A stretch of 32,000 nt of DNA, taken from Gallionellales bacterium GWA2_54_124. GTDB lineage: Bacteria > Pseudomonadota > Gammaproteobacteria > Burkholderiales > Gallionellaceae. Shown in pieces: positions 13,211 through 28,410 of the stretch. A model generated the notes under the pieces. The model was not told the DNA's origin and searched no databases. It saw only the letters and a program-made list of their open reading frames with translations. Positions within the stretch are counted from its first letter, which is position 1. The number at the start of each line of letters is the position of its first letter. Location: assembly GCA_001801025.1 (NCBI GenBank), contig MGWO01000007.1, positions 1,217,576 to 1,249,575 of the forward strand, read 5' to 3'. The translations under genes and the position numbers were made by a program.

Positions 13211-13229
13211 TCAGTCAGCATCGTTTATT

Positions 13230-13262
13230 AAAAGCCGCCAGATCATTCTGGCGGCTTTTTTG
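13230..13262 (+). terminator. Rho-independent terminator of typA
   Basis: AAAAGCCGCCAG / CTGGCGGCTTTT stem followed by a T-run. Confidence 0.85.
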
Positions 13263-13307
13263 TTGATTAAAATTGACAAGGCAGCGTAATTTTGCGAAGC
13301 TCTGATC

Positions 13308-13637
13308 ATGTCCTACCGTGCCCGAAAATTAATCGCTGTTTTGCTTGCCATCTGGTTGCCGCTCTTTAGCGGCAGTGCCTTGGCCGCCAGCGTGATGATG
13401 CAGATGCCGTCTGATACCTGTCAGGAGATGGGAATGGACGGGCATGACATGGCGCCCGTTCCTGCGCAATGCGATACCTGCGATGTCTGTCATTTGGCCT
13501 GCGGCAGTTATCTCGCCGTGCAGGCGATTTCTCATCCTGACGCACTATCCGCCGTTGCGACGGTCACACCCTATTTGCTCTCGTTTAACTCCATCACCAG
13601 CATTCCCTTGCTCCCTCCGCCTTTAGCGCTCCTCTAA
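13308..13637 (+). CDS. Small secreted Cys/His/Met-rich protein (putative metal-binding, efflux-operon associated)
   Basis: 109 aa. Signal peptide LLAIWLPLFSGSALA, then MMQMPSDTCQEMGMDGHDM and CDTCDVCHLAC. Sits directly upstream of cusCBA. No family assignment was possible by eye. Confidence 0.55.
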   Translation: MSYRARKLIAVLLAIWLPLFSGSALAASVMMQMPSDTCQEMGMDGHDMAPVPAQCDTCDVCHLACGSYLAVQAISHPDALSAVATVTPYLLSFNSITSIPLLPPPLALL

Positions 13638-13732
13638 TACAGGACGAATCCGCCTGCCGGTATCGATTTATCCCGTCCTGAAACAGGGTAGCGATCACGT
13701 TATCTGACTGATTACGCACGAGGATTAGCAAC

Positions 13733-14971
13733 ATGAAACAAATCATTTATATTTTTCTTGCCTGCTGGCTTCTTCCCGCCGCAGCTCAGCCTTTGGGCCG
13801 TGATGTGGCAAGCCTGCTCGCCTATGCGAAGGATCACAATCAGGAACTGGCCGCACTGCGTTTTGACGCGGATGCTGCCTCCCAGCGCGTGCAGCCGGCA
13901 GGCAGCCTGCCTGATCCTGTGCTGCGCACCGAACTGATGGATTTTACCAATCAGGGTAACAACAGGCCTGCCAGCCTGCTGCCGGGTAATGTGGGCGCTA
14001 CGCGATATTTGCTCACGCAGAGTGTGCCCTGGTATGGTCGTCGCGAGTTGCAAAGCAATGTCGCCCGGGCGCAGGAGAGCGGTATTCGCGGACAAGTTGC
14101 GGCACTTTGGGCCGATTTGAGCAGCAAAATTAAATCAGCCTATGCGATGCATTACTACCTGGCGGGCAGCATCAGGCTCACGCGTGAGATGGCTGATCTG
14201 ACGCAGCGCCTCGAAAAACTGGCGCAAACCCGTTATGCCAACGGGCAGGGGACGCAGCAGGAAGTGATCCGCGCACAACTTGAACGAACTGATTTGCAGA
14301 GCACGCTGATCGCATTGGCGAACGAACAACATCATGCACATACCCAACTGAATAATCTGTTGTCGCGCCCATCCGATGCCCCGCTTGCCGATCCTGAAAC
14401 GCTGCGCCCCCTGCCGAGTGCGGCAGGTCTTGGCACGCTAGACGCGTTGGTGCGCGCCAATAATCCCCAGTTACAGATCGCCGCATCCGGTGTGGATGAG
14501 GCGAAAATCAATCTCGATCTGAGCTATAAAAACCGTTATCCCGGATTCACGCTGGGGGTTGCGCCCACTCAGAGCGGAAACACGGTCAAAAGCTGGGATC
14601 TGATGGTTGAATTTAATATCCCCTTGCAGCAGGAATCGCGCCGCTCACAGGAGCGTGAGGCACAATCTCGGGTTGCGGCTGCAACTGCACGACAGGAGGT
14701 ACTGCTCAACGGCGTCCTGTCGGCTTTAGCAGAAAGCGTGTCGGGGCTTGCGAGCGCGCAGCGCACCGAAAATCTGATTGCGATGCAGATGCTGCCGCAG
14801 GCAGAGCTGTCATTTCAATCGGCGCTGAACGGTTATGCGAATGGCAAGGTCGATTTTGCCACCTTGCTCGATGCGCAGCGATTCATACTGAAAGCGCGTT
14901 TGCAACAGATCAGGGCGCAGTATGACGCTCAGCTTAGACTGGCTGAAATTGACCGCTTGACGGGAGAATAA
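13733..14971 (+). CDS. cusC: Outer-membrane efflux protein (TolC family), CusC-like
   Basis: 412 aa, signal peptide, OEP-type coiled repeats. First gene of a C-B-A heavy-metal RND operon. Confidence 0.85.
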   Translation: MKQIIYIFLACWLLPAAAQPLGRDVASLLAYAKDHNQELAALRFDADAASQRVQPAGSLPDPVLRTELMDFTNQGNNRPASLLPGNVGATRYLLTQSVPWYGRRELQSNVARAQESGIRGQVAALWADLSSKIKSAYAMHYYLAGSIRLTREMADLTQRLEKLAQTRYANGQGTQQEVIRAQLERTDLQSTLIALANEQHHAHTQLNNLLSRPSDAPLADPETLRPLPSAAGLGTLDALVRANNPQLQIAASGVDEAKINLDLSYKNRYPGFTLGVAPTQSGNTVKSWDLMVEFNIPLQQESRRSQEREAQSRVAAATARQEVLLNGVLSALAESVSGLASAQRTENLIAMQMLPQAELSFQSALNGYANGKVDFATLLDAQRFILKARLQQIRAQYDAQLRLAEIDRLTGE

Positions 14972-14973
14972 TA

Positions 14974-16566
14974 ATGAATAAAATAAAATTAATAACACTG
15001 TCTATTACGGTGATTTCTATTGTTGCAACAGGCGGCTACTGGCTGGGAAGTCATGCAGAATCTAGAACTCATAACTCAGGACTCAGGGTTCAGGAGGAGG
15101 GTTCTAAGCCGGGCGAGCAGCGCAAAATTTTGTATTACCGTAATCCGATGGGATTGCCGGATACCTCCCCCACGCCTAAAAAGGACAGCATGGGTATGGA
15201 CTATGTGGCAGTGTATCAAGGCGATGCGACGGAGGACGGTCTGGTTACCATCAGCGTCGAAAAGGTACAGAAATTAGGCGTCAGGCGCGAAGCGGTCACA
15301 CGGCGAGATGTGAATAAAACGCTGCATGTCAGCGGGCGGATTGAAATCGATGAGCGTCGCACCTATGCGATTTCCCCGAAATTCGAAGGCTGGATCGAGC
15401 ATCTGTATGTCAATAGCGCAGGACAGAGCGTGACGCGTGGTCAGCCTTTATTCGAGGTGTACAGTCCGGAACTGGTATCCGCTCAGCGTGAATACAGTAT
15501 AGCCAGGCAAGGTGAGGAGACCTTAAAGAATGCAGGTTCCGAGGCATCCCTCGGTATGAGCCAACTGGCTGAGGGCGCTCGCTCGCGGCTTAAAAACTGG
15601 GATATCGCAGACGGTCAAATCAGTCAGTCGGGCAACTCCCGCCGCACCTTGACCTATTACGCACCGGCTACCGGCATCGTGATGGAGAAAAAAGCCGTAC
15701 AGGGGATGCGTTTTTTGCCCGGTGAGACGCTGTATCAAATTGCCGATTTATCCCGTGTGTGGGTGATTGCGGATGTCAATGAGCAGGATATCGGACAGGT
15801 CAATTTAGGCGGCGTGGCACAGATTCGCATCGCGGCTTATCCAGATAAAGTTTTCGAAGGGAAAGTCGCGTTTATTTATCCGACCCTCAATGCGGCGAGT
15901 CGCACGGTTCAGGTGCGGGTGGAACTGGACAATCAGGCAGGGAAACTCAAGCCCGCGATGTTTGCCAGCGTCACCTTGCCGACGGCTAATCATACTGAGG
16001 TGCTGACGGTGCCTGTTTCATCCGTGATCGACAGCGGTAAGCGAACGATCGTGATCGTTGAGCGCGCCCCCGGGCTTTTTGCACCACGCACCGTGACTGT
16101 CGGCCAGCGCGGCGATGAGTACGTCGAAATACGGGCGGGGCTTGCGGCGGGCGAACAGGTCGTCACCTCAGCACTGTTCCTGATCGATGCAGAAAGCAAT
16201 CTTAAAGCCGTACTGAGTGGCCTCGGCGGGGAGGATAGCGCGATCCCGGCAAAGCCTGTATTGGCACCGGAGACCGCGAAGCCTGTGATCGCCAAACCCA
16301 CTGTCGTTAAAAGCCCTGTCGTTAAGCGGGTTGGTCATCAGGCGGTTGGTGTTTTTAATTCGATCAATCCGGACGGTTCGGTGAGCATTACCCACGAGGC
16401 GATTAAAACGCTGGGCTGGCCCGGCATGACGATGGATTTTGCACTCGCCAATGCCTCGCTTTCAAGCGGCCTGAAGGCGGGGAGCCGCATTCGCTTTGAG
16501 ATTGTCGAGCGCAAACCCGACGAATGGGTAATTACCAGTCTGCACGACGTCTCACAGGAGCATTAA
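14974..16566 (+). CDS. cusB: RND periplasmic adaptor CusB-like with C-terminal CusF-like domain
   Basis: 530 aa. The N-terminal ILYYRNPMGLPDTSPTPKKDSMGMDYV looks like a metal-binding segment. An HlyD/MFP barrel core follows. After a Pro/Lys/Val linker, the last roughly 85 aa (HQAVGVFNSINPDGSVSITHEAIKTLGWPGMTMDF...) resemble the periplasmic Cu/Ag chaperone CusF. Confidence 0.85.
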   Translation: MNKIKLITLSITVISIVATGGYWLGSHAESRTHNSGLRVQEEGSKPGEQRKILYYRNPMGLPDTSPTPKKDSMGMDYVAVYQGDATEDGLVTISVEKVQKLGVRREAVTRRDVNKTLHVSGRIEIDERRTYAISPKFEGWIEHLYVNSAGQSVTRGQPLFEVYSPELVSAQREYSIARQGEETLKNAGSEASLGMSQLAEGARSRLKNWDIADGQISQSGNSRRTLTYYAPATGIVMEKKAVQGMRFLPGETLYQIADLSRVWVIADVNEQDIGQVNLGGVAQIRIAAYPDKVFEGKVAFIYPTLNAASRTVQVRVELDNQAGKLKPAMFASVTLPTANHTEVLTVPVSSVIDSGKRTIVIVERAPGLFAPRTVTVGQRGDEYVEIRAGLAAGEQVVTSALFLIDAESNLKAVLSGLGGEDSAIPAKPVLAPETAKPVIAKPTVVKSPVVKRVGHQAVGVFNSINPDGSVSITHEAIKTLGWPGMTMDFALANASLSSGLKAGSRIRFEIVERKPDEWVITSLHDVSQEH

Positions 16567-16567
16567 G

Positions 16568-19500
16568 ATGCTACAAAACATCATCGTCTGGTCGGCTCGC
16601 AACCGATTTTTAGTGCTGCTGGCGACAGGATTCATTGTGCTGGCGGGTGTTTATGCGATGTACAAGACGCCGCTGGATGCCTTGCCCGATTTATCCGATG
16701 TACAGGTCATTGTTTATACTGAATATTCAGGTCAGGCGCCGCAGGTGGTCGAGGATCAGGTGACCTATCCGCTGACCACGGCGATGCTGGCGGTGCCCAA
16801 ATCCCGTGTGGTGAGGGGCTTCTCCTTCTTTGGCGCTTCCTTTGTGTATGTGATTTTCGAGGACGGTACCGACATCTACTGGGCCAGATCCCGCGTACTG
16901 GAGTCGCTGGCCAGCATTGCCGGACGAATGCCGGCCGGTGTCGCGCCGCAACTGGGGCCGGATGCGACAGGGGTGGGCTGGGTGTACCAGTATGCGGTGC
17001 TCAGTGAAAAACACAATCTCGCTCAGTTGCGCACCATGCAGGACTGGTATTTACGCTATCAGTTGACCAAGGCGCATGGCGTCTCGGAAGTCGCCTCGAT
17101 AGGCGGTTTTGTGCAGCAGTATCAGGTAAGCGTGGATCCGGTCAAACTGCGCGCCTACGGCATTGCGCTCAAGACCATATCGCAGGTTATCCGGGATTCA
17201 AATCGCGATGTCGGCGGTCGCGTGGTGGAGATGGGCGAGACCGAATACATGGTCAGAGGGCGCGGCTATCTGCGCGGCAAAACGGATATCGAGACGCTGG
17301 TGGTGAAAGCGGATCGTGGCACACCGGTGCTGCTGCGCGATATCGCGCGCGTCGAACTCGGGCCCGACGAGCGGCGCGGCCTGACTGAACTTGATGGCGA
17401 AGGCGAAGTCGTGGCGGGGATTGCGATGGCGCGGTTTGGCGAAAATGCGCTGGAGGTCATTGAAAACCTCAAGCATAAGCTCACTGAAGTCTCGGCAGGG
17501 CTGCCCGAGGGCGTATCAATCCGCGCTGTGTACGATCGCTCAGAACTGATCAAGCGTGCAATCGACACCCTCAAACACACGCTGCTCGAAGAAGGCCTGA
17601 TCGTGGCGCTGGTCTGTATGGTGTTTTTGCTGCATGTCAGAAGCGCACTGGTGGCGATTTTAATGCTGCCGGCCGGTGTGCTGATCGCGTTTATCGCCAT
17701 GCATGCGCTGGGGATGAATTCAAACATCATGAGTTTAGGGGGAATCGCTATTGCAATCGGTGCGATGGTGGATGCGGCGATCGTGATGATCGAGAACGCA
17801 CATAAACACATTGAGCGATTAGGGGAGGGCGAGTCGCGTAGTGATGCGATTATTGCCGCCTGCCGCGAGGTTGGCCCGTCGCTATTTTTCTCCTTGCTGA
17901 TTATCACGGTGTCATTTTTGCCGGTATTCACGCTCGAATCCCAAGAAGGGCGACTGTTTTCACCGCTTGCCTATACCAAAACGTTTTCTATGGCGGGCGC
18001 GGCGTTGCTGTCGGTGACGCTGGTGCCGGTGCTGATGCTGCTGTTTATTCGCGGGCCGATTCTGCCTGAGCAGAAAAATCCGCTCAATCGCTGGATGATC
18101 AGGTTCTACCGTCCGCTGATTGCTGCCGTACTGTCGAAGCAGAAAACCACCGTTGCGATCGCGCTGCTGGTGTTGGCTCTGTCCGTCTATCCTGCGATGC
18201 GATTGGGCAGCGAGTTTATGCCGACGTTAAATGAAGGCTCATTGCTGTATATGCCAGCCTCGTTGCCGGGTATGTCGGTCACGAAGGCGGCCGAGTTGCT
18301 GCAAACGCAGGACAAGATCATCAAGTCGTTCCCGGAAGTCGCTTCCGTGTTCGGCAAAGCGGGCAGGGCGCAGACTGCAACTGATCCTGCGCCGCTGGAA
18401 ATGTTCGAGACGGTGATCAATCTAAAGCCTCAGGATCAGTGGCGTCCCGGCATGACCACCGATAAACTGGTCGCCCAGATGGATCAGGCCCTGCAATTTC
18501 CCGGTGTAGCCAATTCCTGGACGATGCCGATCAAAGCCCGCATCGATATGCTCTCAACTGGAATCAGAACACCTATTGGAATCAAGGTGTTCGGCAAGAA
18601 TCTTGAGGAAATGGAGCAGCTTTCAAAACAGATCGAGAGCGTGGTGCGGCAGGTGCCGGGCACATCCAGCGCGTATGCGGAACGGTTAACGGGCGGCGCT
18701 TATCTTGATATTGAGCCCGATCGTATGGCGCTGGCGCGTTACGGCCTGACGGTGGGTGATGTGCAGGATGTGATTGCGACCGCCTTAGGCGGCGAGACGG
18801 TCACCACCACGGTGGAAGGACGGGAGCGCTTCGGTGTCAACGTGCGATATCCGAGGGATTTGCGCGGCACACCGGAGGAGATTGCCCGCGAAGTGTTAGT
18901 CACCACTCAGGACGGCGCGATGATTCCGTTGGGGCAGGTGGCCAGAGTTATTATTAATCGCGGCGCACCGTCGATCCGTACCGAAAACGCGCTGCTCTCG
19001 GCGTATATCTATGTGGACATCAGGGACCGCGACATCGGTTCATTTGTCGCCGATGCGCGCCGGGCGGTGAACCAACAGGTCAAATTTCCGCCGGGCTATT
19101 ACGCGACCTGGAGCGGTCAGTTTGAATATATGGAGCGTGCCTATGCGCGCATGAAGATCGTGATTCCGATCACTTTGCTGCTGATCTTCCTGTTGCTGTA
19201 TCTCAATTTCAAACGGGTGACGGATTCCCTGATCGTGATGCTGTCGGTGCCCTTTGCGCTGGTCGGCGGTTTATGGCTGCTGTGGCTGCTCGATTACAAC
19301 GTATCGGTCGCCGTTGCGGTCGGGTTTATCGCGCTCTCAGGCGTGGCGGCTGAAACGGGTGTTGTGATGCTGATCTATCTTGAGCAGTCATGGCAGGCGG
19401 TGCTGGCGCGCTGCAAGGATGAAGGGCGCGCGGCCACGGTGCAGGATTTACATGATGCCATCATGCACGGCGCAGTCGAGCGGGTACGCCCCAAGATGAT

Positions 19501-19672
19501 GACGGTGGTCGCGATCATGGCGGGCCTGTTGCCTATCCTGTGGAGCACGGGTACGGGGTCTGAAGTGATGCGACGCATCGCCGCCCCAATGGTGGGCGGC
19601 ATGATTTCGTCGGCTATTCTGACGCTGTTGGTCATCCCGGTGCTGTTTGCGCTGGTAAAAGGAAAAAAATGA
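16568..19672 (+). CDS. cusA: Heavy-metal efflux RND pump, CusA type (Cu/Ag)
   Basis: 1034 aa. The TM4 signature GGIAIAIGAMVDAAIVMIENAHK matches the monovalent-cation (CusA) class rather than the CzcA DFGIIVDGAV class. Confidence 0.92.
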   Translation: MLQNIIVWSARNRFLVLLATGFIVLAGVYAMYKTPLDALPDLSDVQVIVYTEYSGQAPQVVEDQVTYPLTTAMLAVPKSRVVRGFSFFGASFVYVIFEDGTDIYWARSRVLESLASIAGRMPAGVAPQLGPDATGVGWVYQYAVLSEKHNLAQLRTMQDWYLRYQLTKAHGVSEVASIGGFVQQYQVSVDPVKLRAYGIALKTISQVIRDSNRDVGGRVVEMGETEYMVRGRGYLRGKTDIETLVVKADRGTPVLLRDIARVELGPDERRGLTELDGEGEVVAGIAMARFGENALEVIENLKHKLTEVSAGLPEGVSIRAVYDRSELIKRAIDTLKHTLLEEGLIVALVCMVFLLHVRSALVAILMLPAGVLIAFIAMHALGMNSNIMSLGGIAIAIGAMVDAAIVMIENAHKHIERLGEGESRSDAIIAACREVGPSLFFSLLIITVSFLPVFTLESQEGRLFSPLAYTKTFSMAGAALLSVTLVPVLMLLFIRGPILPEQKNPLNRWMIRFYRPLIAAVLSKQKTTVAIALLVLALSVYPAMRLGSEFMPTLNEGSLLYMPASLPGMSVTKAAELLQTQDKIIKSFPEVASVFGKAGRAQTATDPAPLEMFETVINLKPQDQWRPGMTTDKLVAQMDQALQFPGVANSWTMPIKARIDMLSTGIRTPIGIKVFGKNLEEMEQLSKQIESVVRQVPGTSSAYAERLTGGAYLDIEPDRMALARYGLTVGDVQDVIATALGGETVTTTVEGRERFGVNVRYPRDLRGTPEEIAREVLVTTQDGAMIPLGQVARVIINRGAPSIRTENALLSAYIYVDIRDRDIGSFVADARRAVNQQVKFPPGYYATWSGQFEYMERAYARMKIVIPITLLLIFLLLYLNFKRVTDSLIVMLSVPFALVGGLWLLWLLDYNVSVAVAVGFIALSGVAAETGVVMLIYLEQSWQAVLARCKDEGRAATVQDLHDAIMHGAVERVRPKMMTVVAIMAGLLPILWSTGTGSEVMRRIAAPMVGGMISSAILTLLVIPVLFALVKGKK

Positions 19673-19726
19673 CAGGCAACGTGATTGAACTTGATGGGCA
19701 ATTGTTAAAATTAAAGCGGATTCGCA

Positions 19727-19822
19727 TTAATACCAACGTATGCAATCACCGGCGGTTTGGGGTCTGGAAAATCGCTCGTTTCTATCGGCCGCATTCAAGA
19801 TTATTTGAAACATGGTAGTCGT
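19727..19822 (+). pseudogene. zot / pI assembly ATPase, N-terminal fragment (Walker A only)
   Basis: In-frame translation reads LIPTYAITGGLGSGKSLVSIGRIQDYLKHGSR, the P-loop N-terminus typical of Zot-like proteins. There is no ATG, and homology stops abruptly at the terminator hairpin at 19824. Confidence 0.65.
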
Positions 19823-19850
19823 AAGGGGGCTTGCGCCCCCTCTTTTTTTA
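19823..19850. terminator. Conserved bidirectional terminator hairpin, copy A
   Basis: AGGGGGC-ttgc-GCCCCCT followed by a T-run. The same hairpin recurs at 21117-21140 and 28419-28438. Confidence 0.7.
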
Positions 19851-19866
19851 CGGTTATGAGAATTGT

Positions 19867-20112
19867 TTAGAAAAATGATTTCAGTACTAAAGCCACAACG
19901 CCGCCCAGTACTAAGCCGGTCATCCATTTTAATATCTGAAGTTCTGCTTTCATGGGTGCTAGTTCTAATTGAATGTCTTTTTTTGTGACTAGCTCCTGAT
20001 CGTTGGACGCATCGCGGTAGGCGTTCGCAATTGCTTCGGCCTGGTTGTTTTGCATACCGCTGGCTTCAGGTGTTTTAACGAATTTCAGGGTGTCGAATGT
20101 AACGGTGCTCAT
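19867..20112 (-). CDS. DUF1640/CCDC90-like small membrane-anchored coiled-coil protein (cargo copy A)
   Basis: 81 aa: MSTVTFDTLKFVK...QAEAIANAY...LVTKKDIQ...C-terminal TM helix. The FDT-x-KFV / AEAIA pattern is recalled from the DUF1640 family. Paralog at 28441-28686. Confidence 0.6.
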   Translation of the reverse strand: MSTVTFDTLKFVKTPEASGMQNNQAEAIANAYRDASNDQELVTKKDIQLELAPMKAELQILKWMTGLVLGGVVALVLKSFF

Positions 20113-20136
20113 GATGTTCTTTTCGGTTGATGGTTA

Positions 20137-20165
20137 AGACTAAATCATTTTCACTACATTAGCAA
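20137..20165 (-). promoter_or_regulatory. Candidate sigma70 promoter of cargo slot (copy A)
   Basis: On the minus strand: TTGCTA (20165-20160), 17 nt, TAGTCT (20142-20137). The block is retained in all three copies. In copy C, homology begins about 5 nt upstream of the -35. Confidence 0.45.
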
Positions 20166-20330
20166 TTTAGTGACCACTCGATGCACTCTCCTGGACGTAA
20201 AAAAACTTTCCGCCTCGATGCTCAACCGTCCCGCTTTTTGCCCGAGAAGAAAAAAGGGTTTCGGGCGGTGTTGATCTGCTGGATCTGACCCGAAGACCGT
20301 AGGGTTCGGCAGTCGTCCCGCCGAAGGTTA
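20138..20330. repeat. 193-bp repeat R, copy A (cargo leader plus 165-bp structured distal part)
   Basis: Aligned by eye to 21691-21883, it shows 3 mismatches in 193 nt. The first roughly 30 nt also match 28711-28743. Confidence 0.9.
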
Positions 20331-20332
20331 AC

Positions 20333-20950
20333 GGTTTGATTGTTCTTGATGATTTTTAATTCGCGTGAATGGGCTGACAAGGGCAGGGCGGCTGTTATCG
20401 CATGGCTTCGCCATTCTCGTAAACTCGGTTGGGATGTCATTTACATTATGCAAGACGTGAATTCTATTGATAAGCAGATTCGCGCCGGATTGATTGAGCA
20501 TGAGGGCGTTTGTAAGCGTTCTGACCGTATGTCATTGCCTTTTGTTGGTGGTATTTTACGTGCTCTCGGTCTTGGTTTTTTGAGTCGTCCGCCTCGTGTT
20601 CATGTCTGCACTGTTAAATATGGCCTTTCCCAGCATGCTCTGTCGTTGATCGTTGGATGTATCGTGGTGTCTTGCTTCAGGATGGTTACGACACGAATCA
20701 GATTTTTAGTGAATTTGATGTTAACGGTGACTCTGTCGGCATTCATTCTATCTTAAGTCCTTGGCATACGCGGGGGCGTTATTTGCCTCCGCCGTTTTTG
20801 ACTCTTTTTCTGCTCTACCTTCGTGGTACTCCTTGGCGAAAGCCGGTTTCAACCTTCAAGCATCCGTTGGTTTCTCGCATCATGAAATTACCGCCGGAAC
20901 GGCGGATAGAGTTTTTCAATCGTTTTGATTCTTGCGGTGCATTTTCATGA
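20333..20950 (+). pseudogene. zot / pI assembly protein body, at least two frameshifts
   Basis: Walker B GLIVLDD (frame 2) hits a stop and the protein resumes in another frame as FNSREWADKGR...HSRKLGWDVIYIMQDVNSIDKQIR. A second shift near 20650 leads into RWMYRGVLLQDGYDTNQIF...LSPWHTRGRY. Confidence 0.7.
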
Positions 20951-21066
20951 GGTTGGTTATTTTGTGTTGCTTGGCTGTCTCGGCTTGTTCGTTTCCTTCG
21001 CATCGTGATGTTTATCTTGATTGGTACAAGTGTATGCAAAACAATTATGTGAAAGATTGTGATTGA
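20947..21066 (+). CDS. Small lipoprotein overlapping zot stop (ATGA), copy 0
   Basis: 39 aa: MRLVILCCLAVSAC|SFPSHRDVYLDWYKCMQNNYVKDCD. Lipobox-like signal and a shared W-x2-C-x8-DC pattern with the ORF at 28177-28308, which sits in the same position. Too short for the ORF track. Confidence 0.55.
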   Translation: MRLVILCCLAVSACSFPSHRDVYLDWYKCMQNNYVKDCD

Positions 21067-21110
21067 GATTTCCCGATCACAGCTGTATGCCGCGTCTTTA
21101 CTGGGTTTGA

Positions 21111-21146
21111 AAAAAGAAAAGGGGGCTTTCGCCCCCTTTTTTTCTC
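21111..21146. terminator. Conserved bidirectional terminator hairpin, copy B
   Basis: AAAAGGGGGC-tttc-GCCCCCTTTT, with an A-run before and a T-run after. Confidence 0.75.
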
Positions 21147-21163
21147 TGGCCGTTGGCTAATTG

Positions 21164-21391
21164 TTAAGCTGTTGCATACCGCCTTACATCTAACTCAACG
21201 CCATGTTGTGCGGCCTGATTTGCTTGCTCTAACAATGATCGGGTGATTTTTGCATCGTGGTAAGCCTCTCCGCAATTTTCACAAACTTCTGCGGGAACGT
21301 TTTTAAACATCATTGTCGAGTTGCCGCGTTCTAGCGTAATGCTTGCAACACCGTGTTGTGTATTTCCGTGTTTGCAAATTGGACATTTCAT
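21164..21391 (-). CDS. MqsA/YgiT-type zinc-ribbon antitoxin-like protein
   Basis: 75 aa: MKCPICKHG...NVPAEVCENCGEAYHD (CxxC...CxxC, YgiT-type zinc-finger pattern). It starts 2 nt after the stop of the upstream DUF4258 gene. Confidence 0.7.
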   Translation of the reverse strand: MKCPICKHGNTQHGVASITLERGNSTMMFKNVPAEVCENCGEAYHDAKITRSLLEQANQAAQHGVELDVRRYATA

Positions 21392-21393
21392 TT

Positions 21394-21666
21394 TTATCTC
21401 CTTGTTTTCAGGTCTTCGAGCCAGATTTCTGGGTTTGGCTCGTATACCGTAATTATGATTCTGATGTCTTCGTCGACAGAGTCGGCGTATACAACGTGAA
21501 CAGCCTTGTTTCCTGCATGTCCTAATAACAGTGCGCTAGGATAGGGCGTGTCATTCGGGTATGCCTCAATAATTGTTCCGGTTTCAATTGCCTGTTCTAC
21601 GTCAATTTCTGATATGCAACGCTCATGCATTCGCTTGATGGCGTGTTGTCTGTAAATTATCCGCAT
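21394..21666 (-). CDS. DUF4258-family toxin-like protein
   Basis: MRIIYRQHAIKRMHERCISEIDVEQAIETGTIIEAYPNDTPYPSALLLG...HVVYA...IIITVYEPNPEIW matches my recollection of the DUF4258 pattern. Start set at the ATG at 21666, which follows the conserved leader/RBS. Confidence 0.7.
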   Translation of the reverse strand: MRIIYRQHAIKRMHERCISEIDVEQAIETGTIIEAYPNDTPYPSALLLGHAGNKAVHVVYADSVDEDIRIIITVYEPNPEIWLEDLKTRR

Positions 21667-21690
21667 GCTTTTCCTTCGTTTGATTGTCAA

Positions 21691-21883
21691 GACTAAATGA
21701 TTTTCACTACATTAGCAATTTAGTGACCACTCGATGCACTCTCCTGGACGTAAAAAAACTTTCCGCCTCGATGCTCAACCGTCCCGCTTTTTGCCCGAGA
21801 GGAAAAAAGGGTTTCTGGCGGTGTTGATCTGCTGGATCTGACCCGAAGACCGTAGGGTTCGGCAGTCGTCCCGCCGAAGGTTA
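21691..21883. repeat. 193-bp repeat R, copy B
   Basis: See 20138-20330. The two flanks diverge immediately after ...CCGCCGAAGGTTA. Confidence 0.9.
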
Positions 21884-21969
21884 TCCAGTCAGCGCGCAGC
21901 CTGTTTTTTAATCACGGAGCTTTTCGCCGTTGATTTTTATTTATCGCGCTGGGGTGTTATTGTGACTTT

Positions 21970-22226
21970 ATGATATTTCATCCATACCCAGTTTGGTCTG
22001 TTGTAATCCGTAATCATTTTTGGACTCTGCGTTATATTCGCGGATTCAATGAGTCGCGGAGACGTCAGCAATATTGGCTAATCGAGAAAGAAAAAAACGC
22101 CTGTATGAAACAGGCGTTGATAGTGAAGTGGTGCGGTTGTTATGCCGAGATATGGCAATTCCTCGGAATCCTCATGCTGAAAAGCGCTTTTGGGATGAAT
22201 TTCATAAGCCCGCGAATTCTCCATAA
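21970..22226 (+). pseudogene. attP-adjacent 85-aa basic protein homolog, frameshifted in an A7 tract
   Basis: The first 42 codons parallel 29460-29717 with many synonymous differences. After A7 (22091-22097, versus A8 in the other copy) homology continues in the +1 frame (KRLYETGVDSEVVRLLCR...KRFWDEFHKPANSP, stop at 22224-22226). Confidence 0.7.
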
Positions 22227-22608
22227 TTTTCTTCTTATATTTGACATAATATACATTTGAATTCAACGAGTTACGATCTAACCCTATCAATTCACTTGCA
22301 TTTGCTGGGGCAGGTGTCATGTTTAAAATGACAGCACCTAATATCACCGACGCGGCATGACTCACAAAAGGGAGCAATACCGCTCTTCTTTCCTGATTTT
22401 TTTCTGTTATTAATTCGCTTGCTGAAATTACTTCCATTTCATTTATTGTTAATAGTTGAGCAATTTGACAACAAACTGCGATTGGTAAACCTGCGCGTCC
22501 GTTTTTTGCATTTGTAATTTGTTGAGAAGATACGCCAAGATAATCGGCTAATTCCTTTTGGCTCCCGACTTCCATTATTGCTAAGACAATGTAATTTTTC
22601 ATATTCAT
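22078..22608 (-). CDS. HTH (Cro/CI-type) phage repressor-like protein; ORF reads through the dif-like site
   Basis: MNMKNYIVLAIMEVGSQKELADYLGVSSQQITNAKNGRAGLP is an HTH. A hydrophobic segment follows (ASVILGAVILNM). AGGAG RBS before the ATG at 22608. There is no stop before the attachment site, and the 28-mer itself encodes NSNVYYVKY. Confidence 0.65.
   Translation of the reverse strand: MNMKNYIVLAIMEVGSQKELADYLGVSSQQITNAKNGRAGLPIAVCCQIAQLLTINEMEVISASELITEKNQERRAVLLPFVSHAASVILGAVILNMTPAPANASELIGLDRNSLNSNVYYVKYKKKIMENSRAYEIHPKSAFQHEDSEELPYLGITTAPLHYQRLFHTGVFFFLD
22096..22118 (-). terminator. Minus-strand intrinsic terminator embedded in the 85-aa ORF (copy 0)
   Basis: AACGCCTG / CAGGCGTT stem. 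On the minus strand it is followed by the T7 run. It lies downstream of the repressor gene, across the dif-like site. Confidence 0.55.
22239..22266 (-). other. dif-like XerC/D site, hybrid (XerD arm and spacer intact, XerC arm degenerate)
   Basis: Plus strand: ATTTGACATAA TATACA TTTGAATTCAA. The reverse complement of the first 17 nt is TGTATA-TTATGTCAAAT, against E. coli dif TGTATA-TTATGTTAAAT. The last 11 nt do not resemble a XerC arm. Confidence 0.7.
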
Positions 22609-22620
22609 TATTTTCTCCTG

Positions 22621-22688
22621 TTGACATACAAATTTATTTGATTTATTGTGTCGATCAAATAAGTTTGTATGCAATTAAATTTGTATGC
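22621..22688 (+). promoter_or_regulatory. Rightward promoter candidate plus three operator-like 9-mers
   Basis: TTGACA (22621-22626), 17 nt, TATTGT (22644-22649). TTTGTATGC occurs at 22664-22672 and 22680-22688, and its near-complement ACATACAAA at 22624-22632. Confidence 0.5.
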
Positions 22689-22737
22689 GCTTAGATTGCA
22701 CCAAACAGCGCAACAAGTCAATCAACAGGGGGCAGGA

Positions 22738-22968
22738 ATGCAAAACGGACAACCAGCACAGCAAAGGCTTATAGGCGTTTCTGGCATTATTCCCGTGCAT
22801 CTTGAAAACCGTCTACACAATTTAGCAGCTTCAAACCGCCGCGATTTCGACTTAGATTACTCGGACACGTTCGCTCAGGTGATCGCGCTAGGTGTCGATG
22901 CATTACAGTCCAGACGTTCGTCGGCCTATGTCCGGTCAACTGAAATTATGAAAAAGGTTTGCGGCTAA
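22738..22968 (+). CDS. Hypothetical small protein upstream of rep
   Basis: 76 aa from the ATG at 22738 (GGGGGCAGGA RBS). TAATG overlap with the in-frame rep ATG at 22968. No recognisable motif. Confidence 0.4.
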   Translation: MQNGQPAQQRLIGVSGIIPVHLENRLHNLAASNRRDFDLDYSDTFAQVIALGVDALQSRRSSAYVRSTEIMKKVCG

Positions 22969-24092
22969 TGACTCCTGCAAACCAACAGGCGCTTGAGGCT
23001 TTACAGGCTTACGACCTCGCGCATCCTCCCGTTGAGTCTGTCTCAACACAACCAGAATTTTTCAAGATAGTGCTGACTGATGATTCCAAATGTCCGGTCA
23101 AGCTAATACCGAATCGCATGTCATCTGGGGATGGTGTTGCATTCCTCGATTGGGTCAATTTCACTATCCACGAATCAACCATGATTGACTCTGCTTTAGA
23201 GGGGCAGTGTTTTTCTGACGAAGATTTCATGGTTTCGTTTTCTCGCATCCTCTTTAAGATTTTCGGCTTTGGTCTTACTTCTCGCATGAGTACCGGATCT
23301 GATTTCTACCAAAAAAGATGGGTGCTAGGGGAGGGCTTCGGCTTTGTCTGTTTCGGCGGCAATAACTCAACCGTCTTGACCAAGCTTTCTGGCACTGGCT
23401 GTGCGGCTGCTCTGCACGGTTGGGAATCTCGGTTAAGAAATTTCCTAGAGTATCAAGCTGTCCAGCCTCGTATCACGCGCCTCGATCTGGCGCACGATGT
23501 CTATGATGGTCAATCCTACAATGTGGATAGAGCTTCCAGTGATTACGATGCTGGCTTATTTTCTTCCGGCGGTCGCTCTCCGAATATCGAACTGCGCGGC
23601 AACTGGCGCACGCCAAACGGCAAAGGCCGCACGGTCTATGTCGGCGCAAGATCAAACGGTAAATATCTCCGCGTCTATGAGAAGGGCCGTCAGCTGGGCG
23701 ATGCTACATCTGAGTGGGTTCGTATCGAGGTTGAAATTAAATCCATTGATCGCGTTATCCCTTTTGATGCTCTGGTTAAGGCTGGCGAATATCTCGCGGC
23801 AACTTATCCGGCGCTCAATTTTCTGTCCGTTAAGCAATGTCGCATTGAAACAATTTCCCGTACTGCTAAGGCTGGCTATGCGCACACGGTTGCATGGTTA
23901 AAACATCAGTGTGGATCATCTTTGGCTCTGGTCGCTGAGATAGAGGGCGGGGCGGATCAGGCTCTTGATCTTATAAAACGCCCGATAGTTTTAAAGGGTG
24001 CTTTGCTCGTACCGTCTTGTGATACGCATCTAGTTCCTATTCATGATCGTGAGCGATTGGAGCATCCCGATATGGTTTTACCTGAATTCTGA
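22959..24092 (+). CDS. Rolling-circle replication initiation protein (Rep_trans / RstA-like)
   Basis: ITRLDLAHDV...GRTVYVGARSNGKYLRVYEKG...EWVRIEVEIK is the pattern of replication-initiation-factor (RstA-type) proteins of filamentous phages. The start may be the TTG at 22959 or the ATG at 22968. Confidence 0.75.
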   Translation: MRLMTPANQQALEALQAYDLAHPPVESVSTQPEFFKIVLTDDSKCPVKLIPNRMSSGDGVAFLDWVNFTIHESTMIDSALEGQCFSDEDFMVSFSRILFKIFGFGLTSRMSTGSDFYQKRWVLGEGFGFVCFGGNNSTVLTKLSGTGCAAALHGWESRLRNFLEYQAVQPRITRLDLAHDVYDGQSYNVDRASSDYDAGLFSSGGRSPNIELRGNWRTPNGKGRTVYVGARSNGKYLRVYEKGRQLGDATSEWVRIEVEIKSIDRVIPFDALVKAGEYLAATYPALNFLSVKQCRIETISRTAKAGYAHTVAWLKHQCGSSLALVAEIEGGADQALDLIKRPIVLKGALLVPSCDTHLVPIHDRERLEHPDMVLPEF

Positions 24093-24163
24093 TTTTTGAT
24101 TACCTCCTGTTTCCGGCGCTCAGGGTCAAAGGTATAGCCGTAGTAATTTATAAGGAAATTGTC

Positions 24164-24457
24164 ATGAAATTTAAAGCCTCTGTTGTTGTTACTGGTCTGA
24201 AGCGTTCTAAAGGCGATATGGAAGGTACGCCTTATGACTTTACGTCTGTTTTTATTCAGGTTGATTTAGACGAATCTACAAAAAACGCTCGCGGTCAGGC
24301 TGTTGAACCGTACAAGCTTGGCACGTCAGACAATTACGCGACTTTCGACGGTTTCCAGTTGCCGTTTAATGCGATGGCTGAGTTTGAAATTACAACTACG
24401 GGCAAAGTCGCAAAGCAAAAATTGCTTTCCCTTGTTCCTGTTCCTGCTCGTCCGTAA
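24164..24457 (+). CDS. Candidate ssDNA-binding protein (gpV analogue)
   Basis: 97 aa, immediately after rep, with an AAGGAA RBS. The assignment rests on size and position only. Confidence 0.35.
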   Translation: MKFKASVVVTGLKRSKGDMEGTPYDFTSVFIQVDLDESTKNARGQAVEPYKLGTSDNYATFDGFQLPFNAMAEFEITTTGKVAKQKLLSLVPVPARP

Positions 24458-24681
24458 TGCAATCCCCTGCGCTCCGTCAAGTTTGGGTTATCCAGTGCAA
24501 AAGCACGGGGGCTTTCTTGACGCCTGAACAAGGCTTTGCTGCAAGCCTAAAGAGGGCAGGGCGTTTGTTCAATCCTGATGAAGTCAGAGAGACGGCTTTT
24601 GATGCGCTCGATGACGATTATGAGGTTCATACCTTCTACGAGGTTGTGCAAATGCTTGAGGGTTTTCGTCATTATGAGTAG
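24457..24681 (+). CDS. Hypothetical protein
   Basis: 74 aa with a TAATG overlap with the upstream ORF. No motif recognised. Confidence 0.4.
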   Translation: MQSPALRQVWVIQCKSTGAFLTPEQGFAASLKRAGRLFNPDEVRETAFDALDDDYEVHTFYEVVQMLEGFRHYE

Positions 24682-24692
24682 CTTTTTCAATG

Positions 24693-24718
24693 CCCCCCCC
24701 CCCACATAAGATGGGGGG
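24693..24718. repeat. C11 homopolymer / G6 hairpin in intergenic region
   Basis: C x11 at 24693-24703, a 9-nt spacer, then G x6 at 24713-24718. Confidence 0.8.
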
Positions 24719-24778
24719 AAAGTATCTTTGTAAGTATGTATGTAGGGTATTTTCCCAAAATTTTATAGGGTTGGATTC

Positions 24779-24967
24779 TTGATGTTTAGTGAACATTCCA
24801 TCACTGCCGACTGGTTCATTCAGCAAGTCATATTAGCCCTGATTCATAGTGCTGTTTATGGCATGGCTTACCACTTTTTCAAAGGGCTGTCCCTCGGTGG
24901 TGCGGTGTTGGCTTGCTTGTGTCTGCTGGTCGTAGCGTGGCTCGCATTTAAACTTTTTAGGCGTTAG
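24779..24967 (+). CDS. Small two-TM membrane protein
   Basis: 62 aa with two hydrophobic helices. Its position is typical of minor virion or morphogenesis proteins. Confidence 0.4.
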   Translation: MMFSEHSITADWFIQQVILALIHSAVYGMAYHFFKGLSLGGAVLACLCLLVVAWLAFKLFRR

Positions 24968-24976
24968 GTCAATTAA

Positions 24977-25288
24977 ATGGCTTTTACTTGCGTCCCAGTC
25001 GTTGCTCAGTGGGGTACTGTCTCCTACATCAACACGAATCAAGCCGCATGCGCTGCTAATCAGTGGGCTGTGTTCACCTCTGCTGATTTGACTGCCTATA
25101 ACGCATCTTTAACCGCTGGCACGGCTTCAACCCCTGCCGTTACACAAACAACGTCATTCTTTCCCTCGATGACGATTGCGGAGGCTCTGCCCATATTTGC
25201 AGCTATCTCGCTGCTGTGGGGGCTGGCTTTCACCTTGAGGGCTATTGGTAATTTTCTAAAACCTAAATCTGGAGATTCAAATGATTAA
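24977..25288 (+). CDS. Small C-terminally anchored protein (possible minor coat protein)
   Basis: 103 aa with a C-terminal TM (LPIFAAISLLWGLAFTL). Its first 120 nt recur with one synonymous change at 31881-32000. Confidence 0.5.
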   Translation: MAFTCVPVVAQWGTVSYINTNQAACAANQWAVFTSADLTAYNASLTAGTASTPAVTQTTSFFPSMTIAEALPIFAAISLLWGLAFTLRAIGNFLKPKSGDSND

Positions 25289-25499
25289 AAAACTGAAAAA
25301 CGCGCTGATTCGTAAACAATTCAAGATCGCTGCTGGCGCTGGTGCGCTTCTGGCTGCTGGCTCGTCACAAGCTGCCATCGATGTAACTGGCGTTACAGCT
25401 GCCCTCACTGATGGTTTGACCGCTGTAGGTACGATCGGCGGTGCTGTTCTGCTCATTTGGGGGACAAAGAAGGTTTACGCCCTCATTTCCGGTCGTTAA
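25281..25499 (+). CDS. Major coat protein (gpVIII-like)
   Basis: 72 aa. Signal peptide ending SSQA|A, then a mature roughly 40-aa peptide with an acidic N-terminus, a hydrophobic core and a basic C-terminus (WGTKKVYALISGR). GGAG RBS and a strong terminator after it. Confidence 0.75.
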   Translation: MIKKLKNALIRKQFKIAAGAGALLAAGSSQAAIDVTGVTAALTDGLTAVGTIGGAVLLIWGTKKVYALISGR

Positions 25500-25518
25500 T
25501 CTTCAGTAAACAAATAAT

Positions 25519-25555
25519 TCCCCTTGTTGCGCGTAGCCTCAAGGGGATTTTTTTT
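25519..25555 (+). terminator. Rho-independent terminator after coat gene
   Basis: TCCCCTTG / CAAGGGGA stem, 13-nt loop, T8 run. Confidence 0.8.
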
Positions 25556-25608
25556 AAGGGGTATAAATTGGAAGGTTATCTTTTGTTACTCGGGCTTATC
25601 GGTGCTTT

Positions 25609-26886
25609 ATGGATTCTCTTCGCTCCCTAGTTTTACTTCTCGCCGTGTTTTTTTCCGGCCATGCTTTTGCTGGTGTTGATTACTCTCAACCCCAGCAGTC
25701 ATTCTCTGCACAAAGCTTGTCAGGTTCTTTTTCTAGCGCTGGGCTTATGCTTTCCGCTTTTATGTCTCATTTTCCGCAATATACGTCCTGTACTTTTGAT
25801 GGCGTCAACTCGCATCCAATTCTCTGCGATGGCACTGGCGGCGGCGGACCTTATACTCAGCAACCTATGGGTGTCGGTTATGCTTCTGCCCCTCTTTGCC
25901 CTTTATCATCTACGTTTAATTCTGTTTCTGGTCAGTGCGAAAAGCCAAATTCATGTACGGCTGGCCAGACTATTTTTGCTGGTCGTTGGTCGTCTATGCC
26001 CTCAAACGGCTGTAATTCAGGGTGTAATGCAGTTTGGACAGGCTCAAACGTTGCGGGAAGTTCCTCTAATTTTTCCGGTTCTGCTGTCCTCGATGGGTCG
26101 TCATGTTCTGGTGGATCGGCTGTGCCTCCTCCTGATTTGCAGGATATAACGGCTTGTCCATCTGGCCCGACTGGCCCGACTTCCTGCGCTGCTGGCGAAT
26201 CACTCGTTATTCAGGGTTGTACAGCATCTTGCTCCCCTAATACTCAGTCTGGTACTTCCGGATCAACGACTGGCGGCACTACTGGCGGCACTACTGGCGG
26301 TACAACTGGTGGCACAACTGGTGGCACAACTGGTGGTACAACTGGCGGTACAACAGGCGGTACAACTACCACAAACAACACGACAAACAATGTTGATATG
26401 TCGCCCGTCACGGCTGCGGTCGATGCTGCAACGGCTGCAATCAAGGCAGGAACGCTTGTCCAGTACTGCATCGATCATCCTGATGCGAATATCTGTCAGA
26501 CCAATGTCATTAATGCCGCTTGCGGTTCTTTTAACTGCTCTGGTGACGCTATTCAGTGCGCGATCGCAAAAGATCAATTTGACCTTCATTGCAAGCTTGC
26601 TAATGAGCAAAACGCCAATCTTGATATAGGCAAAAGGATGATTGATGGAACGGACACTAGCGTCAGAAATCCCGCTGATGTCGCTAACCGCTCCACTTTC
26701 TCAATTGGTTCTTTGGATATGAGTTCCCCCATTGCGGCCAAGTGCCCGGACGATGTTGTTTTTACTGTCATGGGTAAGTCGTCAACTTTGCCGTTGTCTC
26801 TCTGGTGTCCTTATCTCGCTCTTGTCGGCAATGTTTTCATGGCCTTGTCTCTTGTCGCTGCTGCTAAAATTATCGGAGGTGTTTAA
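25609..26886 (+). CDS. Adsorption / minor coat protein (gpIII-like)
   Basis: 425 aa. Signal peptide, Cys-rich N-terminal domains, (TTGG)x8 flexible linker, C-terminal membrane anchor. Confidence 0.7.
   Translation: MDSLRSLVLLLAVFFSGHAFAGVDYSQPQQSFSAQSLSGSFSSAGLMLSAFMSHFPQYTSCTFDGVNSHPILCDGTGGGGPYTQQPMGVGYASAPLCPLSSTFNSVSGQCEKPNSCTAGQTIFAGRWSSMPSNGCNSGCNAVWTGSNVAGSSSNFSGSAVLDGSSCSGGSAVPPPDLQDITACPSGPTGPTSCAAGESLVIQGCTASCSPNTQSGTSGSTTGGTTGGTTGGTTGGTTGGTTGGTTGGTTGGTTTTNNTTNNVDMSPVTAAVDAATAAIKAGTLVQYCIDHPDANICQTNVINAACGSFNCSGDAIQCAIAKDQFDLHCKLANEQNANLDIGKRMIDGTDTSVRNPADVANRSTFSIGSLDMSSPIAAKCPDDVVFTVMGKSSTLPLSLWCPYLALVGNVFMALSLVAAAKIIGGV
26266..26361 (+). repeat. 12-bp tandem repeat x8 encoding (TTGG)n linker
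   Basis: ACN ACN GGN GGN is repeated 8 times with synonymous third-position variation. Confidence 0.9.
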
Positions 26887-28180: not shown

Positions 28181-28308
28181 TTAAAAAACTTTTCTGGATT
28201 CTGATGGTCGTTTTGATGTCTGGCTGCATGTCTACGCCTGAATCCCGCCATGCTGAAACTGCTGCATGGTGGTCTTGTACTAATCTCCATCGTGTTGGAG
28301 ATTGCTGA
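28177..28308 (+). CDS. Small lipoprotein overlapping zot stop (ATGA)
   Basis: 43 aa: MIKKLFWILMVVLMSGC|MSTPESRHAETAAWWSCTNLHRVGDC. Lipobox LMSGC. Homologous in position and Cys pattern to 20947-21066. Confidence 0.55.
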   Translation: MIKKLFWILMVVLMSGCMSTPESRHAETAAWWSCTNLHRVGDC

Positions 28309-28410
28309 ATATCGAGGCGAAGCGCACGCGGCTAACGAAGTGCCGCGAAGCTCGCCCGATATTTATTTTCTTCGATCGCAGCTGTATGCCGCGTATTTAC
28401 TGGGTTTTAT

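Follow-up and report, generated by a model that had tools for sequence, protein, structure and literature searches.

Two short genes in a 32,000-nt stretch of a Gallionellaceae genome (contig MGWO01000007.1 of Gallionellales bacterium GWA2_54_124; the whole stretch is called the window here) raise the question of how two proteins come to begin with the same twelve residues, behind the same leader and before the same terminator, and to differ widely in between. The genes, variant A (19867–20112) and variant B (28441–28686), both lie on the minus strand and each encode a protein of 81 residues. A first-pass annotation, made from the sequence, had attributed the pattern to diversifying selection or allelic replacement in a determinant of phage immunity or exclusion. 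The analysis reported here leads us to favour, at somewhat better than even confidence, the reading that A and B are variants of a short CCDC90/DUF1640 protein carried as swappable, self-contained cassettes in the accessory slot of elements integrated at dif, where the protein would act as a moron-type scaffold expressed in lysogeny.

Translation confirmed both open reading frames (ORFs) and their common N-terminus, MSTVTFDTLKFV, with residues 1–12 identical. The two proteins share 40 of 76 aligned residues (53%; BLASTP E = 4e-27). At the DNA level, the leader (55/57) and codons 1–12 (34/36) form a 93-nt island of 95.7% identity (89/93), high as first described, though below the roughly 98% then given for the flanks; past codon 12 the coding sequences (CDSs) agree at 105 of 207 nt (50.7%). 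Upstream of the leader the DNA is unrelated (23% identity), and downstream the only common element is a G+C-rich hairpin of about 20 nt, AAGGGGGCGCAAGCCCCCTT. Both genes run antisense to the morphogenesis genes, which also agrees with the first description. A homologue search with the A+B alignment returned 321 proteins, nearly all of 81–82 residues and from metagenome-assembled Gallionellaceae, Nitrosomonadales and related genomes; 120 of them were listed. The length of 81 residues is found in 92 of these 120 and is a property of the family, not a peculiarity of the A/B pair. MSTVTFDTLKFV or a near variant opens almost all of the 120, so the N-terminal identity of A and B follows from a dodecapeptide conserved throughout the family.

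The right half of the window is a filamentous prophage array integrated at dif by XerCD. A hybrid dif (attL, 22239–22261, plus strand) combines the left arm and centre of dif, ATTTGACATAATATACATT, with a phage-derived right arm beginning TGAA, and a complete, regenerated dif (attR, 29729–29751, plus strand) stands before a second phage, phage 2. The complete site has one mismatch to a dif consensus, with 0 matches expected by chance, and is identical to the dif of L010 (GCA_041643195.1), a close relative that is free of the prophage. Phage 1 lies between the two sites (about 22258–29728) and carries Rep (phrog_453, 7.6e-82), pI/Zot, Coat_B, DUF2523 (pVI-like) and pIII-like genes. The pI/Zot morphogenesis gene (27191–28180, plus strand; phrog_197, 1.5e-67; PF05707 in related contigs) is its last core gene and is convergent with B. 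The phage-1 gene lists of related contigs include no integrase family, and megablast of the 9-kb region against GenBank phages gave no match. L010 encodes an identical A protein at the same position, next to the same resistance–nodulation–division (RND) efflux gene, and corresponds to window positions 9869–20330 joined directly to 21675–22257, followed by a perfect dif at about position 10820 of its reverse complement. Because the L010 alignment skips phage 1 and keeps A, B lies in inserted DNA and A in a resident remnant. Together, the hybrid dif, the complete dif and the empty dif of phage-free L010 argue for XerCD/dif integration without a phage integrase.

The resident element that holds A is decayed and is retained in all sampled strains. 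It consists, in order, of an 87-nt fragment of the pI/Zot N-terminus, the hairpin, A, its leader, a 209-bp segment, orf96 and dif. The first-pass annotation had placed A and B in the same slot of different prophage copies; the positional slot is indeed the same, but A stands in a remnant between pI/Zot fragments and not in an intact prophage. Frame translation places the N-terminal fragment at 19730–19816 (plus strand), where it carries the Walker A motif AITGGLGSGKS and is cut off at the terminator. The middle and C-terminal part survives as a frameshifted remnant at 20333–20950 (plus strand), likewise read from frame translations, and a 135-aa Zot fragment is called in related contigs. The 209-bp segment is present in the window as a direct repeat, with copy 1 (20122–20330) including the leader of A and copy 2 (21675–21883), 97% identical, including a third leader (TTGCTA at 21718–21713, TAGTCT at 21695–21690); L010 has a single copy. 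Compared with L010, the window also holds an extra block of 1,553 bp between the repeats, which contains the frameshifted pI/Zot remainder. A discrete insertion of this block into pI was considered and rejected in favour of deletions within a tandem array, because in L010, as at the second repeat copy, orf96 follows the 209-bp segment with nothing in between.

The small ORFs around the slot are partly shared between the resident element and phage 1. The dif-proximal ORF of the resident element, orf96 (21970–22260, plus strand), overlaps the repressor ORF of phage 1 at the 3′ end of the latter and shows 75% DNA identity to the region of orf85 (29460–29717, plus strand), which sequence comparison identifies as its homologue at the dif-proximal end of phage 1. 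Searches of orf85, orf96 and orf83 against Pfam at E ≤ 1 gave nothing useful. Upstream of B lies orf134 (28741–29145, minus strand), which appears in public contigs as an ORF of 83 aa (about 28741–28992); it has no match in Pfam, PHROG, PADLOC or NCBIfam, and a homologue of its 3′ end precedes an A-like gene in another species (L025).

A and B share their slot with a third occupant. The leader of A (20113–20169, minus strand) contains TTGCTA (20165–20160), a 17-nt spacer and TAGTCT (20142–20137), with a weak ribosome-binding site before the ATG; the leader of B (28687–28743, minus strand) has TTGCTA at 28739–28734 and TAGTCT at 28716–28711. Three copies of the leader occur in the window, against a chance expectation of 0, and all three keep TTGCTA, the 17-nt spacer and TAGTCT. 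The common leader and terminator described earlier for A and B therefore hold, at 55/57 and with one hairpin common to both, and the third copy, absent from the first-pass annotation, lies with its own terminator at 21117–21722 (leader copy at 21689–21721) and frames a DUF4258/MqsA-like gene pair. The DUF4258 gene, a presumed toxin (21394–21666, minus strand; 90 aa from the ATG at 21666, whose start codon was checked; PF14076, 1e-24), is followed after 3 nt by a gene for a 75-aa MqsA/YgiT-type zinc-ribbon, antitoxin-like protein (21164–21391, minus strand; PF15731, 3.9e-7; TIGR03831, 2.7e-14) that does not include the helix-turn-helix part of MqsA. The pair is presumed to be a type II toxin–antitoxin system. 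Since one leader/terminator combination frames A, B or a toxin–antitoxin pair, the slot holds exchangeable cargo; it is bounded on one side by the pI/Zot end of the morphogenesis operon and on the other by the dif-proximal ORF (orf85/orf96). On a deltaproteobacterial contig (L061), a DUF4258/MqsA pair (652–1223) is found directly upstream of a DUF1640 gene (1461–1712).

The hairpin downstream of A lies at 19823–19844 (plus strand), that between pI and B at 28415–28442 and that of the toxin–antitoxin slot at 21117–21140; the last two are bidirectional, being hairpins with T-tracts, and the segment 21074–21142 is 90% identical to 28373–28442, which includes the hairpin after pI of phage 1. Within the leader, TTG..A does not vary across 8 aligned upstream regions taken from different contexts. 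The leader of L025 retains 31/33 identity although the CDS behind it has a dS (synonymous divergence) of about 1.2; with synonymous sites of the CDS saturated, this indicates that the leader itself is constrained. A structured RNA or packaging-signal hairpin is not supported, because neither the leader folded as RNA (z = +0.83) nor the 209-bp repeat folded as DNA (z = +0.38) was more stable than shuffled sequence, and an Rfam search (E-value mode) of 19600–30000 gave two chance-level matches only, both on terminator hairpins. An integron cassette was also dropped as an explanation: the leader has no GTTRRRY-type attC core by eye (no dedicated search was made), and dif integration explains the array. 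When JGI metagenome contigs and IMG/VR were scanned for exact copies of the leader, 0 matches were returned, so the diversity of slot cargo was sampled solely from contigs fetched by protein identity.

Among these contigs, natural recombinants at the leader support the allelic replacement that had been proposed as one of two explanations. Contig L022 (1–4464) joins window positions 23511→21664 to 28743→26266, with the 60-nt leader as the overlap, so that the resident element's leader, 209-bp segment and orf96 precede the CDS of B and the Zot gene of phage 1. Such a join implies recombination between the 60-nt leader repeats, giving phage 1 in circular or tandem form. L025 has an A-like CDS behind an upstream region of the orf134 type. 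When L022 and L025 are added to the window's own types, five of the six combinations of upstream module (209-bp segment or orf134) with cargo (A, B or toxin–antitoxin) are observed. The same exchange occurs in a phage-free chromosomal slot between the gene for a 432-aa CXXCH protein and Exo_endo_phos/PLDc/LipA/NadA genes, where L172 has an A-like and L007 a B-like gene; identity between the two is 85% over the intergenic stretch and some 44 nt at the start of the CDS, beyond which the coding sequences diverge. Chimeric proteins of 85 aa, with a B-type head, an A-type anchor and a longer stalk, are encoded in L041 (7574–7843), L042 (7424–7843) and L066 (7989–8258). Allelic replacement is thus supported as a general habit of the family, with joints in conserved segments, and the role of the leader and the conserved first 12–15 codons as a joint for swapping cargo and upstream modules is directly supported.

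Diversifying selection, the other explanation first offered, was not borne out. The 116 matches of 78–85 aa split into 88 A-like and 28 B-like proteins, and each clade is internally conserved, anchor included. Nei–Gojobori estimates for A against individual members of its clade gave ratios of nonsynonymous to synonymous divergence (dN/dS) of 0.02–0.07 at saturated dS: 0.022 for L025, the counterpart beside the RND gene (dS 1.23, dN 0.027), 0.068 for L001 (dS 1.86, dN 0.126) and 0.025 for L162 (dS 4.35, dN 0.108). Comparison of A with B (dS 1.24, dN 0.39) is saturated, which makes its dN/dS uninterpretable, and gave no sign of positive selection within that limit; dS is 0.30 in codons 1–12 and 1.71 in the remainder. 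Purifying selection is therefore strong within two old lineages, at saturated dS and with no diversification in place, and the combination of a conserved flank with a diverged core is that of cassette replacement between variants whose divergence is old.

A and B belong to CCDC90/DUF1640 (PF07798), and the assignment made in the first-pass annotation is sound, although each of the two taken singly scores below the Pfam threshold. Precomputed PF07798.17 matches exist for 119 of the 120 listed homologues, both window proteins included, and a profile built from 30 family members matched, over profile positions 3–72, the CCDC90B head–neck fused to GCN4 (6H9M, E = 7.1e-5); B also matches phrog_17872 at 7e-14. 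The stalk of DUF1640 proteins begins with a beta-layer motif, [aliphatic]-A-T-K-[polar]-[D/E] (Hartmann et al. 2016, PMC4786415). It is present as L41-V-T-K-K-D46 in A and L-V-T-K-Q-D in B, with V replacing A, and T43 and K44 do not vary across the family alignment. The C-terminal membrane segment reported for both proteins corresponds to their most hydrophobic 15-residue windows, 67–81 in A (mean Kyte–Doolittle 2.26) and 62–76 in B (2.33), beyond which there are 0 residues in A and 5 (LMKMH) in B. The AlphaFold2 monomer model consists of helices 8–17 and 22–80. Judged from sequence, the layout would be a helical head (about residues 1–40), the beta-layer motif, a stalk of about two heptads (some 15 residues) and a C-terminal anchor. 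By homology with CCDC90B and MCUR1, the protein probably forms a trimer with its anchor in the inner membrane. Eukaryotic relatives are membrane scaffolds facing the mitochondrial matrix, which corresponds in topology to the bacterial cytoplasm (PMC7519068), and homology with matrix-facing CCDC90B, MCUR1, Put6 and Put7 places the head probably on the cytoplasmic face. In the literature searched no function was ascribed to bacterial members of the family, as the first-pass annotation had also supposed. An XhlA- or holin-like lysis protein was considered and rejected, with no such Pfam match at E ≤ 0.1 and the gene lying antisense to the lysis genes in tailed phages.

Exhaustive profile searching at E ≤ 1e-3 returned 3,583 clusters at 50% identity, mostly of 79–100 aa. 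The family is not phage-specific: it occurs in inoviruses, tailed phages, toxin–antitoxin-rich islands and a housekeeping operon. Of the close A-clade relatives looked up, the two that proved to be carried by phages, P0009 (78% identity to A) and P0032 (80%), occupy that same end in three different inoviruses. In these Gallionellaceae inoviruses a gene for a ParB/Spo0J/Noc-like protein (359–368 aa; parB_part 95–104 bits, cut-off 58.45) is found 27 nt upstream of the A-like gene, and the two, convergent with a Zot or secretin gene (ParB_N to DUF1640 at L001 4868–6246, L003 4903–6246 and L162 4894–6246), look like an operon; a dif or hybrid dif lies 1–3 kb away. A close relative of B occurs in a different dif-integrated virus, which has P2_N/P2_C domains (L170). 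In IMG/VR, 53 viral contigs carry family members, lambdoid and P2-like tailed phages among them. Among 49 viral contigs, 23 have the gene antisense to its neighbours on both sides and 4 have it co-directional with them; the corresponding figures for genome loci are 7/69 and 29/69.

On chromosomes, about 12 Gallionellaceae loci place the gene beside his genes and a gene for a CXXCH protein of 430–470 aa, the commonest chromosomal neighbour. This neighbour has a signal peptide and a single N-terminal CXXCH (L031 8492–9799, L007 4483–5778, L172 3541–4839), has no match in Pfam, NCBIfam or PADLOC, and is presumably similar to the fused cytochrome–porin Cyc2 of iron oxidisers. Between L007 and L172 it is 69% identical, far more diverged than the flanking genes (85–95%). 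Many family loci hold DUF4160/DUF2442 or ParE/ribbon–helix–helix pairs, and tandem arrays contain up to six DUF1640 paralogues (L079, L082, L101, L064). In another Gallionella species (L158, 4464–7676), the company of an A-like gene next to the RND gene consists of CTX_RstB-family and helix-turn-helix genes, a ParE/ParC-like pair, a DUF6290 gene and a one-mismatch dif, which indicates another decayed dif-integrated element at the same chromosomal place.

Several further observations concern the prophages themselves. The helix-turn-helix repressor ORF of phage 1 (22078–22674, minus strand) reads across the hybrid dif into the resident element, so that its C-terminal 60 or so residues are encoded beyond the attachment junction, on the strand opposite the overlapping orf96. 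The segment 24976–25096 equals 31880–32000 at 99%, which means that phage 2 rejoins phage 1 exactly at the start of the structural module; its replication module differs (Phage_CRI Rep, Phage_DNA_bind and its own repressor), a case of modular mosaicism in co-resident inoviruses. The pIII-like gene (25609–26886) contains a 12-nt tandem repeat, GGY ACW ACT GGY, encoding a Gly/Thr linker (26239–26370), and its product varies in length across related contigs (421, 425, 441 and 461 aa), with the gene split in L013.

The cassette reading combines these observations as follows. Each gene, running antisense to the phage genes, would be a unit of its own, in which a leader holding a weak promoter of sigma-70 type is followed by the ORF and then by a hairpin terminator; from this unit the protein would be expressed in the prophage independently of the phage operons. 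B belongs to phage 1, and A persists beside the chromosomal dif in a decayed element that no longer has an intact phage. Recombination at the leader and 5′ codons exchanges cargo and upstream modules between the resident remnant and incoming phages. The protein itself may be a small oligomeric scaffold at the cytoplasmic face of the inner membrane that aids persistence of the element. Its company (the toxin–antitoxin pair of the same slot, ParB in sister phages and toxin–antitoxin pairs in islands) points to maintenance or defence. Within this reading, exclusion of or defence against other phages is a tentative possibility, maintenance of the element or tethering of its DNA with a ParB-like partner, as precedes the gene in the related inoviruses, is possible if a little more doubtful, and the remaining weight falls on a host-modulating role.

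A number of points weigh against this interpretation. The promoter hexamers are weak (TTGCTA matches at 4/6 and TAGTCT at 3/6, below the threshold of a consensus scanner), B may be co-transcribed with orf134 instead of using its own promoter, and the hairpin of A has its T-tract on the plus strand only, not on A's own strand. L022 could in principle be an assembly chimera; a repeat of 60 nt is shorter than the longest k-mers usual in assemblers, which speaks against this. Taken singly, the two sequences score just under the PF07798 gathering score of 33.5 (A, 27.2 bits, E = 4.2e-6; B, 32.0 bits, E = 1.3e-7), and a Foldseek search of the AlphaFold2 monomer against the PDB gave a best E of 2.4, uninformative for a near-single helix. 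Neither PADLOC nor NCBIfam matched A, B, orf134 or orf85. Zot is among the two downstream neighbours at only 3 of 80 loci of species-dereplicated genomes, and at 7–8 Methylococcaceae loci (Methylobacter and others; L054, L057, L058, L060, L062, L069 and L091, family gene near 8001) the arrangement is ubiE-ubiJ-X-ubiB, where X, between ubiJ (SCP2) and ubiB (ABC1), is a DUF1640 homologue. Because contexts are mostly outside inoviruses and include the ubi operon, the family has host roles and the phage copies may be hitch-hikers. The first-pass annotation had named a family made up mostly of chromosomal housekeeping genes as one finding that would count against its proposal; such a distribution is seen in part, yet it stands beside the three inoviruses and the 53 viral contigs.

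This last argument can be taken further, to a host gene with a physiological membrane role, connected for example with the neighbouring CXXCH outer-membrane protein in Gallionellaceae or with ubiquinone biosynthesis in Methylococcaceae, of which dif elements have picked up copies by recombination and which has no phage function. The retention of A in phage-free L010, the presence of a 94% relative beside the same RND gene in another species at a dN/dS of 0.02, the CXXCH/his and ubi loci, and the homology of the right end of phage 1 to the resident dif-adjacent module are all as this account would have them. We nevertheless regard it as unlikely, since recurrence of the position in no fewer than four different viruses integrated at dif and also in the 53 viral contigs, tailed phages included, and the strong antisense bias in viral contigs, indicate selection on mobile elements, and the pI/Zot fragments that flank A indicate that A arrived with a phage. 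The phage setting is central to a different account, in which the protein provides type-specific superinfection exclusion or immunity, with A, B and the chimeric forms as specificity types that keep filamentous phages of the same type from entering or becoming established and are kept by frequency-dependent selection. The moron-like position and orientation in inoviruses and tailed phages fit such a role, as do the discrete old variant classes that alternate at orthologous positions, prophage and chromosomal, and the three co-resident units of the window with their three cargos (A, the toxin–antitoxin pair and B). Small inner-membrane exclusion proteins are known in inoviruses, among them PfsE (PMC8764522), and a screen has been made (PMC6813254). 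Strongly purifying selection with no arms-race signature, the family's presence in housekeeping operons and phage-free islands and the missing PADLOC match leave exclusion rather doubtful as the overall explanation. Masking of a receptor or pilus, which the first-pass annotation had suggested, is unlikely in the periplasm because 0–5 residues extend beyond the predicted anchor, so that the protein would have to act within the membrane or on its cytoplasmic face; action at the cytoplasmic side of a pilus or Tol machine is possible. Later phages integrated at the adjacent dif in spite of A, and since A co-resides with them it does not exclude all comers; type-specific exclusion by A may be compatible with these integrations.

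If the protein acts on the element itself, a tail-anchored trimer could recruit to the inner membrane a DNA-binding partner, ParB/Noc-like in the related inoviruses, and stabilise the prophage or position it or its replicative form near the site of assembly. The ParB_N gene 27 nt upstream of A-like genes in three inoviruses, the toxin–antitoxin pair, another stabilisation device, as the alternative occupant of the slot, and the matrix-facing membrane scaffolds among the eukaryotic relatives (PMC7519068) are in keeping with tethering. ParB genes are missing from the phages of the window, A is kept where no replicating element exists and many homologues have no DNA-binding neighbour, and we consider tethering as the general explanation quite unlikely. 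Equally speculative is a broader version of the exclusion idea, in which the A, B and chimeric classes form a long-lived polymorphic specificity system: head and anchor types would each recognise a partner and be maintained by frequency-dependent selection across species and across chromosomal and prophage slots, for example for type-specific exclusion or compatibility among dif elements, with the leader and first codons as the swap joint.

On the cassette reading, the locus can be compared with several known systems. CCDC90B, MCUR1, yeast Put6/Fmp32 and Put7 have in common with A and B an N-terminal head that opens with the FDT motif, the beta-layer motif and a C-terminal transmembrane anchor. 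A and B differ from these proteins in being only 81 aa long, in lacking a targeting peptide, in having a stalk of some two heptads where the others have a long coiled coil, and in lying on mobile elements; a link to calcium uptake or proline metabolism is not expected for them. Toxin–antitoxin pairs and exclusion genes are established inovirus cargo (PMC6813254; PMC12328805). As with inovirus morons and toxin–antitoxin cargo (Pf KKP; families of Roux et al. 2019), the slot is a variable non-core region by the attachment end, past the morphogenesis genes, with putative expression signals of its own. It is set apart from known inovirus cargo by a conserved leader that serves as recombination joint and by the orientation of the gene antisense to the core. 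Comparable cargo at prophage ends includes ctxAB after zot in CTXphi and PfiT/PfiA in Pf phages.

PfsE of Pseudomonas Pf phages, a small superinfection-exclusion protein of the inner membrane, acts by inhibiting type IV pili (PMC8764522). Likened by description and not by sequence, it shares with A and B that it is a small membrane protein of a filamentous prophage, and it is a plausible functional analogue should exclusion be the role. PfsE is much shorter, and its gene is part of the core region, where it points the same way as the phage genes. DUF1640 proteins differ from it in a predicted folded cytoplasmic head and in a distribution far beyond phages. The integration itself resembles that of the integrative mobile elements exploiting Xer (IMEX), namely CTXphi, VGJphi and TLCphi of Vibrio cholerae, which integrate at dif through XerCD. 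The common traits are dif integration without an integrase, a hybrid and a regenerated site, tandem arrays, decayed remnants and hybrid genomes that can arise from arrays. In contrast to the Vibrio elements, the host here is a betaproteobacterium of the Gallionellaceae, and the dif-proximal module (orf85/96, leader and cargo) is common to the remnant and the incoming phages.

A and B are thus new short members of a known family in a known setting, the accessory region that filamentous prophages have at their attachment end. The literature searched contained no description of DUF1640 as recurrent cargo of inoviruses or dif elements, nor of the ParB pairing, the leader as recombination joint or the discrete head and anchor types; these points are leads and not a new class of system. 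The alternation with toxin–antitoxin pairs, the ParB pairing and the discrete, recombining head and anchor types can each be tested, and the housekeeping context of ubiE-ubiJ-X-ubiB could hint at the basic function of the family. A polymorphic specificity system, if true, would be the first function assigned to bacterial relatives of MCUR1 and CCDC90B. The bacterial CCDC90/DUF1640 proteins are numerous, their family includes the mitochondrial scaffolds MCUR1 and CCDC90B, and the short forms travel as cassettes. For the iron-oxidising Gallionellaceae, the locus documents a modular landing pad next to dif, at which a resident remnant and incoming phages exchange cargo.

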